In this document: positions 6,764 to 10,745 of the stretch, in pieces
Layout: the number at the start of each line of letters is the position of its first letter
How positions within the stretch are numbered: the stretch's first letter is position 1
Assembly (NCBI GenBank): GCA_018894075.1
Contig: JAHIEB010000039.1
Location: 1 to 28,629 of the forward strand
DNA: 28,629 bases
Source of the DNA: Patescibacteria group bacterium
GTDB lineage: Bacteria; Patescibacteriota; Minisyncoccia; Minisyncoccales; Staskawiczbacteraceae
Direction: 5' to 3'
Notes under the pieces: model-generated
What the model was told of the DNA's origin: nothing
Database searches by the model: none
Seen by the model: only the letters and a program-made list of their open reading frames with translations
Made by a program: the position numbers and the translations under genes

Positions 6764-7174
6764 CTAGTTTATCTCAATCACATCGCCCTCTGTCAAACTA
6801 ATTGTGCCTGCTTTGAACTCAAGCGCATATTTAGCTTTTATGCCTGGATTGATTAGCTGTTCATTTTTCGGCTCTGTATTTCTGGAAACAAAGACAACCT
6901 CTTTTTGTTCATTAATCCAAAAGATATCTAAAGAGACATAAGTATTCTTCATCCAGAAAGGATAAACGCCTTCTTTGGGAAAGATAAAAAGCATTCCTTC
7001 ATTCACCTCTTTCCTAAACATCAATCCCAGCTGTATTTTGACAGCATTGTCGGCAATTTCTACCCGAAAACAACTGTCGTTAAAACAGACTTCAGCAGTT
7101 TGTTTTTTAAAAAACAAAAATACAGCTAAAACTGCGGTAGCTGTTAGAAGAATGATAAGAATAGTTTTTCTCAT
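6764..7174 (-). CDS. DUF192 family protein with N-terminal anchor
   Basis: GLMFR, GMLFIF and FWMKNT motifs; MRKTILIILL start at 7174. Confidence 0.85.
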   Translation of the reverse strand: MRKTILIILLTATAVLAVFLFFKKQTAEVCFNDSCFRVEIADNAVKIQLGLMFRKEVNEGMLFIFPKEGVYPFWMKNTYVSLDIFWINEQKEVVFVSRNTEPKNEQLINPGIKAKYALEFKAGTISLTEGDVIEIN

Positions 7175-7301
7175 TGGAGCGGGATAGTGGATGACATTAG
7201 AACCTATTGGCAAACAACTACCGAGCGTTTCTTTATTCCAAGTTTAACATTGGAGAAGGCTAAAATCAATTAGATTGCTTGTCATAATATTGTTTTGGAA
7301 T

Positions 7302-7335
7302 AAAAAAAGCTCTCGCACAGTTGCGCGAAAGCTTT
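7302..7335 (-). terminator. Intrinsic terminator downstream of the RNase III-like gene
   Basis: Minus strand AAAGCTTTCGCGCA-ACTG-TGCGAGAGCTTT (2-nt bulge) then T run. Confidence 0.6.
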
Positions 7336-7365
7336 GGAAATCGGTCTCTACCGATCTTTGATTGT

Positions 7366-8025
7366 CTATTTTGTAAGCTCTTGGACAGCTTTTTGTGCCG
7401 CGACCTTCTCCGCTTCTTTCTTTGTCGGTCCCTCTCCCTGTGCCAATAGCTGGTTGCTAGAGTATACGCCGACAGTAAAAACCAAATTGTTCATGGGACC
7501 AGTTGTCCCTATCAGCTCATATCTCGGAGTTATGCCCATCTTTGCCTGCATTATTTCCTGTAATTGGCTTTTTGGATCTTTTACAACCTCTCCGCTGATC
7601 CTGGCAAACAGGAATTTCTTGGCGAACTCTTCAAAGGCGAAGTATCCGCCGTCCAAAAGGATGGCCCCCATTAACGCTTGTACGGCAGTCTCAAGCGCCG
7701 TTTGGAATCCTGCGTTATAAACACCTTCCGATCGTAAGCCATCTGGAACGGAAATGTGCCTCTTAATGTTCAGAGACGAAGCTATTTCCGCTAAAGCGGA
7801 TTTGGTGCACACGCCATCTCTCATCTTACTCATCTTGCCGGGTGTATCAAGATGGTGTGTGAACAACTCCTTGGCCAAAACAAACTGCGCGGCCGCTGAA
7901 CCCAGAAATGCAAGCGCCCCATTGCTTTTCCTTCCCTCATTGGCGTGGGTAAGCGCTTCTATCAGCAAATCCCTGTTTGTAAAAGTATATCCAATTGCAT
8001 CTTGCAGAGCCGAAAGATTAGCCAT
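7366..8025 (-). CDS. rnc: RNase III family protein (RIIID plus dsRBD) with degenerate catalytic residues
   Basis: LQDAIGYTF..DLLIEALTH, NGALAFLGS (vs NERLEFLGD), LETAVQALMGAILLD (vs LADTVEALIGGVFLD), dsRBD DPKSQLQE..GEGPTKKEAEKVAA; AGGAG SD 7 nt before ATG 8025. Confidence 0.88.
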   Translation of the reverse strand: MANLSALQDAIGYTFTNRDLLIEALTHANEGRKSNGALAFLGSAAAQFVLAKELFTHHLDTPGKMSKMRDGVCTKSALAEIASSLNIKRHISVPDGLRSEGVYNAGFQTALETAVQALMGAILLDGGYFAFEEFAKKFLFARISGEVVKDPKSQLQEIMQAKMGITPRYELIGTTGPMNNLVFTVGVYSSNQLLAQGEGPTKKEAEKVAAQKAVQELTK

Positions 8026-8091
8026 CGCCAGTCTCCTAAAATAGACTTTTTTATTTTCAAATGGTGGAAAACGATTCTCCACCCTGCATAT

Positions 8092-8119
8092 AGTGTATCA
8101 TATTTTTATAATATGTCAA
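8092..8119 (-). promoter_or_regulatory. Sigma70-type promoter for the RNase III-like gene
   Basis: Minus strand TTGACA, 16 nt, TACACT with TGn extension. Confidence 0.65.
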
Positions 8120-8120
8120 C

Positions 8121-8141
8121 CAAAATCGCCCCTTAGGGCGA
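8121..8141 (-). terminator. Terminator after tRNA-Pro/tRNA-Gly
   Basis: Minus strand TCGCCC-TAAG-GGGCGA-TTTTG. Confidence 0.6.
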
Positions 8142-8196
8142 CAGAGGTTCTAACTACACTTACCTGTATGCTAAATTTACGACTATTTTTACGATG

Positions 8197-8267
8197 AGCG
8201 GGTAAGGGGAGTCGAACCCCTCTCATTAGCTTGGAAAGCTAAGGTAATACCGATATACGATACCCGC
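8197..8267 (-). tRNA. tRNA-Gly(TCC)
   Basis: GCGGGTA/TACCCGC acceptor stem, TTCCAA loop, GGTTCGACTCC T arm, U73; CCA not encoded. Confidence 0.95.
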
Positions 8268-8271
8268 GCAT

Positions 8272-8343
8272 TCGGGGTGCTGGGATTCGAACCCAGACTA
8301 AACGCTCCCAAAGCGTTCGTGCTAGCCGTTACACAACACCCCG
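8272..8343 (-). tRNA. tRNA-Pro(TGG)
   Basis: CGGGGTG/CACCCCG acceptor stem, AACGC-TTTGGGA-GCGTT anticodon arm, GGTTCGAATCC. Confidence 0.95.
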
Positions 8344-8353
8344 ACATAAGGAT

Positions 8354-9860: not shown

Positions 9861-10745
9861 ATGATCAGAGTGATTGATGGAGGCGGAAATGGATTCCGCC
9901 GGGCAGACGTGGACGGAATCAGCGTTTACGATATAAAGAAAACAGAAAAAGGAGAAATCAACAACCCCGAAGAGCTGGTGGCTTTTGCGACTGCATCTCT
10001 CCCGCGAGGATATGAAGGCATCTGCTATGTCGTGGCAGGCGAGGTATCGCACGGGGTAGTGGTCAGGTCCCCGCAGATTCCCTGGCTGAACGGCGTTGAT
10101 CTAGCCGAAAGAACCGGCATTATGAGGACAGTGGTTGCCAATGATATGGACGGGGCAGCTATGGGCATGTGGATGCTCGAGCACCCCGTGTATTTTTTGG
10201 CTATGACCTGGAGTTCTGGCATCGGCCTTAGGGTTGTCAAGGGCGGCCAGATCCTGGCTAGCTCTGAAGCAGGCCACATTCCTCTGGATCTCTCTCCCTT
10301 TGCTCCTCTGTGCGGATGTGGACAAAGGGGGTGCGCTGAATCCATCCTGGGAGGAGAGGCGGTCATGCGGCGCGTCATTGCCGAGGTGGCTGTTCGGGGA
10401 GAGGTCATCCCTGATAATCTCCACCCCTGTGCATTTTTGGACCAGGAGTTTGACAAGGACAATCCTTGGGCTACTGATCTGTATGACCGAATCGCGCTTG
10501 GCATGGCCATTGTTTTGGCAAGCTATGTGAGCATTCTCCGGCCGGGTTTGATCATCTGGAAGGGGAGTTTTGCCAAGGCTGCGTTGCCTCGGATTGCGGA
10601 CTCAATCCGCAACCATCTGCGATCAAAGCTCATGAACCCTGTTTGGGCTGACGATCTGGCATTCTGGTTTTCTCCCGAACCGGATAGAGATTCCTTAATC
10701 GGGGGAGCGGTCCTTTTTGAGCAGCGGAAGGGACTAATTATCTAA
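9861..10745 (+). CDS. ROK family protein (putative sugar kinase), divergent and GC-rich
   Basis: IDGGG, VANDMDGAAMG, EAGH and CGCGQRGCAE Zn motif; AGGAG SD upstream. Confidence 0.88.
   Translation: MIRVIDGGGNGFRRADVDGISVYDIKKTEKGEINNPEELVAFATASLPRGYEGICYVVAGEVSHGVVVRSPQIPWLNGVDLAERTGIMRTVVANDMDGAAMGMWMLEHPVYFLAMTWSSGIGLRVVKGGQILASSEAGHIPLDLSPFAPLCGCGQRGCAESILGGEAVMRRVIAEVAVRGEVIPDNLHPCAFLDQEFDKDNPWATDLYDRIALGMAIVLASYVSILRPGLIIWKGSFAKAALPRIADSIRNHLRSKLMNPVWADDLAFWFSPEPDRDSLIGGAVLFEQRKGLII

Follow-up and report, generated by a model that had tools for sequence, protein, structure and literature searches.

In a 28,629-bp stretch of DNA from a Patescibacteria group bacterium (contig JAHIEB010000039.1 of assembly GCA_018894075.1; hereafter the window) we characterized a gene at positions 7366..8025 of the minus strand that encodes a paralogue of ribonuclease III (RNase III) with a degenerate active site. 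Its product, P0001 (219 amino acids plus stop), would be a full-length class-1 RNase III scaffold that is non-catalytic, has been kept by selection and binds double-stranded RNA (dsRNA) without cutting it. We favor this reading with moderate confidence, and its functional part is what we infer from the sequence of the protein and of its relatives. An initial annotation of the window had described the gene as a probably inactive RNase III with an intact dsRNA-binding domain (dsRBD). The intact 219-codon open reading frame (ORF), the degenerate signature NGALAFLGS (7897..7923 (-)) and the codons for Thr113 (7687-7689 (-)) and Gln116 (7678-7680 (-)) were all found where that annotation had placed them.

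In a multiple alignment, the P0001 residues at the positions of E. coli E38, E41, D45, E65, E100, D114 and E117 are G, A, S, P, L, T and Q, respectively. The first three replacements (E38G, E41A and D45S) fall within the signature, which reads NERLEFLGD in canonical enzymes, and the last two fall within the second acidic cluster at 7678..7689 (-), where the canonical D-x-x-E has become T-A-V-Q. Solved RNase III chains likewise align NERLEFLGD and the AD..EA motif against the replaced residues of P0001. The conservation of these positions was tabulated over 272 sequences of 195-320 amino acids, namely the nearest RNase III homologues that two large protein searches yielded, together with the canonical Rnc resident in the same genome. 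E41, D45 and E117 were kept in all 269 homologues outside the three-member clade to which P0001 belongs. The D114 column of the 272 homologues is mostly Asp, with Asn in ∼80 sequences and also Gly, Ala, Ser, Cys and Arg, and the resident canonical Rnc itself has Asn there. Judging from these sequences, D114 is a "catalytic" Asp that is not conserved in nature, and D114T is no evidence of inactivity. In a deep mutational scan of E. coli rnc, E41, D45 and E117 tolerated zero substitutions, whereas D114 was tolerant and E65P was nearly neutral (PMC10037077). The E. coli E117K mutant binds dsRNA and does not cleave it (PMC10037077), and E117 bridges both catalytic metal ions in RNase III (reviewed in PMC3867540). 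Because the changes at E41, D45 and E117 are each sufficient for inactivity, P0001 is predicted not to cut by the canonical mechanism, by which it should be catalytically dead. Of the four lost catalytic acids on which the initial annotation had built its case, E41, D45 and E117 are therefore diagnostic, being invariant in the 269 homologues and intolerant in the scan, whereas D114 is variable and uninformative. Three further acids that it had not listed, E38, E65 and E100, are lost in P0001 as well.

The equivalog model TIGR02191 aligns P0001 end to end with a score of 142.8 bits, which is under the cut-off of 166.25, while the resident Rnc scores 242.9 bits. When set beside class-1 RNase III (EC 3.1.26.3), P0001 has the RNase III fold and the C-terminal dsRBD and lacks the E38/E41/D45 signature, the metal-bridging Glu and a score above the TIGR02191 cut-off. 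Since it fails both the defining catalytic features and the curated cut-off, P0001 should not be annotated as ribonuclease III. Three features of pseudo-RNase III proteins of the mL44 and KREPB4/5 type are found in P0001, namely an RNase III fold with a substituted site, purifying selection and a coexisting canonical rnc.

Profile and structure alignments agree with the earlier claim of an intact dsRBD within an RNase III fold. The RNase III-like (nuclease) domain with the degenerate active site spans residues 1-145 (7591..8025 (-)) and matches PF14622 at 64.3 bits and PF00636 at 48 bits, and the dsRBD spans residues 150-217 (7375..7578 (-)) and matches PF00035 at 57.4 bits over residues 151-217. 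An AlphaFold2 model of P0001 made with 118 aligned sequences has a mean predicted local distance difference test (pLDDT) score of 93.7. Its best Foldseek matches are Aquifex, Thermotoga and E. coli RNase III, followed by mL44, Drosha and Dicer, and its nuclease-like domain can be superposed on that of C. jejuni RNase III with a root-mean-square deviation (rmsd) of 1.5-1.8 Å. A per-column comparison of the dsRBD found that P0001 retains 18 of the 18 columns that are conserved in canonical enzymes and fully conserved in the clade. The clade keeps Lys152, Leu155, Gln156, Glu157 and Gln160 of RNA-binding motif 1 (RBM1), and also Tyr169, Gly176, Phe183, Gly199, Ala205, Glu206 and Ala209/210. The exception in P0001 among the canonical-conserved dsRBD positions is His179, which is Asn and lies in the RBM2 loop, a loop that is mutation-tolerant in the E. 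coli rnc scan (PMC10037077). In the nuclease-like domain the RBM3 residues Ser66 and Arg69 and the domain core are retained, and the canonical-conserved columns that have been lost (the signature motif, E65, Val76 and E117) cluster at the active site. The clade members have an isoelectric point (pI) of 7.8-9.4, whereas that of the resident Rnc is 5.2 and canonical enzymes have a median of 5.9; a basic pI is expected if the cleft needs no metal ions for neutralisation.

Single-sequence and profile searches of 5.8 billion protein clusters and a full HMMER search of 1.84 billion representatives were made for close relatives of P0001. Only two were found, P0002 (49% identical) and P0019 (50-51% identical), and the profile score falls from ∼400 to 169 bits after the three clade members. 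At the position of E38, P0001, P0002 and P0019 have Gly, Thr and Ala; at E41 they have Ala, Gln and the original Glu; at D45, Ser, Asn and Ala; at E65, Pro, Pro and Ile; and at D114, Thr, Ser and Ser. E117 is Gln in P0001 and is kept as Glu in P0002 and P0019. Thus E38, D45, E65 and D114 are lost in all three members, mostly by differing residues, and on sequence grounds such varied replacements fit an ancestral loss of function that was followed by drift at disused sites. The DNA encoding P0019 is identical in three assemblies from different sources. Apart from Asp70, which is taken up below, residues Ala45, Phe48, Lys52, Glu53, Ala105 and Ala110 are invariant in the clade and specific to it.

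Pairwise Nei-Gojobori comparisons within the clade gave proportions of synonymous differences (pS) of 0.69-0.78, which are saturated, nonsynonymous distances (dN) of 0.28-0.47 and a dN/dS ratio (omega) of ∼0.2 or less. When the P0001 coding sequence was allowed to drift neutrally, by substitutions only, to 50% amino acid identity, it acquired a mean of 5.7 stops and the frame remained open in 1 of 300 runs. Within the clade, conservation is 47-60% in the nuclease-like domain and 54-67% in the dsRBD, and both domains have been under purifying selection across the clade. Neutral decay of the homologues, which the initial annotation had named as grounds for giving up its interpretation, is ruled out by the saturated pS with this range of dN and by the simulation. 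A further reservation of that annotation, that the substitutions might be an assembly error, is ruled out by an independent contig with an identical gene: the 1495-bp JGI metagenome contig Ga0180732_1043985 differs from window positions 6852-8346 by 2 mismatches, both of which are in the neighboring DUF192 gene.

The host assembly (528,348 bp in 85 contigs, ∼96% complete by estimate) also encodes the canonical Rnc whose presence had been supposed from the window alone. Its gene is located on contig C78 (L003:1483-2172 (-)) between rpsP and nusB-rpmF, and the protein has an unaltered NERLEFLGD. P0001 is 34% identical to this Rnc, and the two are the only dsRBD proteins detected in the host genome. 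Close relatives of the resident canonical rnc are labelled "Patescibacteria group bacterium" or "Candidatus Nealsonbacteria".

We propose that P0001 would form an RNase III-type dimer, and that this dimer would clamp dsRNA through the dsRBD, with its intact RBM1, and through the RBM3 helix with Ser66 and Arg69. Because six cleft acids have been replaced by small or neutral residues, binding is proposed to be Mg2+-free and to proceed without a cut. P0001 would then be nature's counterpart of the E117 mutants, which bind dsRNA but leave it uncut, and it may shield or sequester particular duplexes and compete with the resident Rnc. In this scheme we infer that P0001 dimerises and that it binds RNA without cleaving it, and likewise what its physiological targets would be. 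The three roles put forward in the initial annotation, those of a dsRNA-binding protein, a translational regulator and a dominant-negative partner of a canonical Rnc, are all candidate roles that our data do not separate.

Several observations weigh against a selected, non-cleaving binder. The clade is tiny, with three sequences in 5.8 billion clusters. The degenerate gene was not found in 40 relatives including two other species of the genus (each had a single match, ∼35% identical, which was the canonical rnc), and its absence from those two species indicates that any function it may have is dispensable for close relatives. Within the clade P0001 has the longest terminal branch (0.68-0.72 vs 0.30-0.37) and has lost E41, E117, Ser29 and His179 in addition, so that selection may be weaker in its lineage; because dS is saturated, omega is not assignable to single branches. 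Finally, Asp70 of P0001 (codon 7816-7818), in the RBM3 helix, is invariant in the clade, while canonical enzymes have Ala or Ser at this position and Asp in 0 of 115.

The gene is an insertion in its present locus, which the initial annotation had not recognized. In two related genomes, G002 (same genus) and G005 (same family), the gap between the DUF192 gene and tRNA-Gly(tcc) is 74-96 bp, whereas it is 1079 bp in the window, and the degenerate rnc is therefore an insertion of ∼1 kb. The 1079-bp gap contains only the degenerate rnc with its promoter-like and terminator-like sites. The upstream boundary of the insertion is formed by tRNA-Gly(tcc) and tRNA-Pro(tgg) (8196..8344 (-)), and the downstream boundary by the DUF192 gene (6764..7213 (-)), which was assigned by PF02643 and by homology to the G002 and G005 loci and has its true start probably at ATG 7174. 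No convincing att-like repeats were found flanking the insertion, and Rfam matches near the gene were tRNAs only.

In two maximum-likelihood trees the resident rnc grouped with relatives of the same order on short branches. The degenerate genes formed the three-member clade (support 100/99) on a stem of ∼1.0 substitutions per site, and the sister group of this clade consists of the canonical enzymes P0022, P0027 and P0031 from other small genomes (support 96/91). A recent duplication of the resident rnc is ruled out by the 34% identity and by the separate placement in both trees. The degenerate gene appears to have arrived as a promoter-gene-terminator unit from another Patescibacteria RNase III lineage. 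Its guanine-plus-cytosine (GC) content is 47.9% as compared with 41.3% for the genome (93rd percentile of long ORFs), and its codon fit is at the 13th percentile.

The start of the gene at ATG 8025 is backed by the alignment, in which P0002 and P0019 begin at the equivalent residue. The initial annotation had credited the ORF with its own promoter, Shine-Dalgarno (SD) sequence and terminator, and matching candidate sites were located. Direct reading of the sequence gave an SD-like AGGAG (8033..8037 (-)) 7 nt 5' of the ATG, and pattern scans gave a sigma-70-like promoter, TTGACA-16-TACACT with TG (8092..8119 (-); 10 of 12 consensus matches), and an intrinsic-terminator-like hairpin of 13 pairs followed by a T run (7306..7335 (-)) that lies 30 nt past the stop. 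All of these sites are consensus matches and their use is predicted. P0002 and P0019 have a promoter-like site, TTGACT-16/17-TAATAT with TG, in a relative position that matches that of P0001. A 9-bp hairpin (8063..8083 (-)) lies at the predicted 5' end of the P0001 leader (fold of 8015-8086: -18.6 kcal/mol, z = -2.2). A role for it as a conserved autoregulatory site is unsupported, as this hairpin was not seen in the P0002 and P0019 leaders.

Elsewhere in the window, the upstream genes are nusA and those for an H+-pyrophosphatase, trigger factor, clpP and RNase Y. The minus-strand group made up of the DUF192 gene, the degenerate rnc, tRNA-Gly and tRNA-Pro is followed by tRNA-Arg, tRNA-His and a gene for an HtrA-type protease. 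At the locus of G002 equivalent to the insertion site in the window there is a 240-aa ORF with a LAGLIDADG-like motif (L036:1962-2684 (-)), which ends inside the 5' part of tRNA-Gly(tcc) (L036:1905-1976). The flanks of tRNA genes look like insertion hot spots in this lineage. A ROK-family gene at window positions 9861-10745 (+), whose local GC is 50-59% as compared with 41% for the genome, is a bigger compositional outlier than the degenerate rnc.

Of the other explanations that we weighed, the one that survives best is that P0001 is a heterodimer partner of the resident Rnc, giving either a dimer that has one catalytic site and nicks one strand of the duplex, or a dimer poisoned in a dominant-negative way and hence a lower RNase III activity. 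We regard this as an unlikely but serious alternative. Its ingredients are at hand, as a canonical Rnc is encoded in the same genome with P0001 as the only other dsRBD protein found there, and the nuclease-like domain, which is as conserved as the dsRBD, holds all RNase III dimer contacts (PMC10037077). There are precedents as well: E. coli heterodimers built artificially with one inactive site introduce nicks into dsRNA (PMC3867540), and the dead trypanosome proteins KREPB4/5 are thought to pair with the active KREN1-3 (PMC3867540; PMC6800513). This is contrasted by the 34% identity of P0001 to the resident Rnc and its descent from another RNase III lineage. Furthermore, the clade members occupy three unrelated genomic contexts (tRNA-Gly/DUF192 for P0001, upstream of xseA for P0002 and, for P0019, between ftsQ and a hypothetical gene of 141 aa), which implies no co-evolution with one particular Rnc, and the signature helices carry the clade-specific changes V to A at 45, L to F at 48 and I to A at 110. 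The foreign origin together with these signature-helix changes would argue mildly for a private homodimer interface.

A bolder and somewhat more doubtful suggestion is that the gene forms a mobile one-gene cassette, equipped with a promoter and spreading among Patescibacteria, which would encode an RNase III decoy, a dead subunit or dimer, that re-programs or blocks the host's only dsRNA nuclease. Such a decoy could act through heterodimer nicking or through duplex shielding, and the beneficiary could be the host or the carrying element. The suggestion is hinted at by the three contexts, by a nucleotide homology between the P0002 and P0019 loci (L035:72-812 vs L039:7930-8649) that sets in precisely at the -35 hexamer and runs to about the stop codon, by the GC excess of all three degenerate genes over their own contigs, and by the clean ∼1 kb insertion of the P0001 gene beside a tRNA gene. 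From these comparisons the gene looks like a self-contained unit placed in differing genomes, which is a lead and not demonstrated mobility.

Three more explanations are each less likely than a heterodimer with Rnc. It is improbable that the gene is on its way out, having been horizontally acquired, useless and not yet broken. Its presence in one species only among those searched is what one would see in that case, as are the longest terminal branch in the clade with the most extra losses of conserved residues and the mildly atypical GC content and codon usage given above. Against this, an unbroken frame of 219 codons comes with a plausible promoter, SD sequence and terminator, the long-term purifying selection in the clade and the neutral simulation speak against a frame that is open by chance, and residues have been lost solely at the active site, with dsRBD and domain core preserved. 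In addition, useless DNA is expected to be deleted quickly from a 528 kb genome, which counts against this explanation.

A shade more improbable is that P0001 is a structural RNA-associated protein in the manner of mL44, bound to ribosomal RNA (rRNA) or to a ribosome-assembly intermediate. The P0001 model matches mL44 chains with E values of ∼1e-11 and with the lowest whole-chain rmsd listed (5.6-6.0 Å), mL44 is matched by sequence too, and precomputed Pfam DSRM_MRPL44 matches are present in all three clade members. In bacteria the stems of rRNA precursors are where RNase III normally docks, which we count in favor of such a role. However, a ribosome component is expected to be widespread, whereas none of the 40 relatives yielded the P0001 type, which occurs in 1 of the 401 genomes sampled from the phylum; the gene is not linked to ribosomal genes, and some canonical copies have a DSRM_MRPL44 match as well.

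The idea that P0001 is still a nuclease with a rearranged or different catalytic constellation is the least credible, for although Asp70 is clade-invariant in the RNA-contacting RBM3 helix, P0019 keeps E41 and E117 and P0002 keeps E117, P0001 itself is without all six cleft acids, the loss of D45 in three ways (S, N and A) looks like drift at a disused site, and no active RNase III is known with such a site (PMC10037077). Two functional links were also considered and set aside. A link to defence or phage is unsupported, as there was no PADLOC match, PHROG gives a match only to a family whose function is unknown and whose alignment spans the entire protein, and matches in the phage database are 28-36% identical to P0001. 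A role as an inhibitor of type II CRISPR RNA maturation is unsupported in this host, in whose genome no Cas9 was found.

Among 401 evenly sampled genomes of the phylum, a tally in which the unpublished genome G193 is counted but not otherwise drawn upon, ∼8 had a second RNase III match and one had the P0001 type. Every second copy that was read among these ∼8 keeps E41, D45 and E117, which rules out a widespread Patescibacteria trait. The second copies L134 (G069) and L142 (G147) keep E41, D45, D114 and E117 and have a strongly degenerate C-terminal domain; with scores of 87 and 50 bits, far under the family cut-off, they represent another route of divergence. A further full-length RNase III with a dead active site was met by chance in a pattern search, in G041 (Patescibacteria group bacterium FW602_bin.41; L091/L124). 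It reads NARLAFLGA in the signature and has Ala at the E117 position, and G041 also has a canonical rnc. In the tree this copy stands apart from the P0001 clade on a branch of 2.06 with an unsure placement, and if that placement holds it is a separate loss. Second copies in the relatives of G041 look active. Taken together, active-site loss in a retained second copy seems to be occasional but rare.

Other candidates were discarded as well. Low-identity cyanobacterial matches proved to be ordinary, active-looking RNase III, and Anabaena Alr1158 is a Mini-III and not a dead class-1 enzyme. The ESM Atlas gave ordinary RNase III clusters only. The top matches of the representative search include P0020 (480 aa), a tandem double RNase III-dsRBD protein, and P0021 (2391 aa), a giant protein with two RNase III modules.

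Canonical class-1 RNase III, as known from E. coli, Aquifex aeolicus and Thermotoga maritima, shares with P0001 its length, the two-domain architecture with a short linker and the predicted fold, and P0001 preserves its conserved core, its RBM1 residues and the Ser and Arg of RBM3. Unlike the canonical enzyme, P0001 has its cleft acids replaced, is basic and not acidic, is encoded outside the rpsP-nusB neighborhood and occurs as a rare, lineage-specific second copy. The engineered mutants E. coli E117K/A/Q and Aquifex E110K/Q and D44N bind dsRNA specifically without cutting it (PMC10037077; PDB titles), and the Gln of P0001 at the position of the metal-bridging Glu is the same residue as in the crystallised Aquifex E110Q (PDB 1yz9). 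These mutants are single laboratory substitutions, whereas P0001 is a natural protein that lacks six acids and evolved in that state under selection. In trypanosomes, KREPB4/5 and KREPB6-8 are dead RNase III domains that stand beside active RNase III and provide a precedent for single-strand cleavage (PMC3867540; PMC6800513). In contrast to P0001, for which pairing is conjecture, the KREPB proteins are eukaryotic and mitochondrial, have PUF or zinc-finger modules and belong to a large complex. The mitoribosomal protein mL44 uses RNase III-like and dsRBD-like domains as a structural RNA binder and gives a clear structural and a weak sequence match to P0001. The two are ∼20% identical, and mL44 is eukaryotic, universal in its lineage and ribosomal, whereas P0001 is sporadic. 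Mini-III (MrnC) is a second RNase III-family protein in some bacteria (PMC10989914); it is active and without a dsRBD, whereas P0001 has a dsRBD and has lost the active site. By analogy, P0001 would be functionally nearest to the E117/E110 mutants and evolutionarily nearest to the dead RNase III-like proteins of organelles.

In eukaryotes, organellar machines are known to contain dead RNase III-like proteins, namely mitoribosomal mL44 and the trypanosome editosome partners. In a limited, non-exhaustive search of the open-access literature we found no free-standing, naturally inactivated bacterial class-1 RNase III that is kept by selection. The general importance of P0001 is limited by the small size of its clade. 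If our favored reading of P0001 as a non-cleaving dsRNA binder is true, bacteria too recruit the RNase III scaffold for this purpose, such recruitment is possible even in a 528 kb genome where each gene is costly, and copies of this kind can pass from one lineage to another as units of a single gene. P0001 would then be a naturally occurring, reagent-like clamp for dsRNA that works independently of metal, and together with the resident Rnc it would offer a simple system of two proteins in which to test how RNase III is regulated by dominant-negative action or by nicking.

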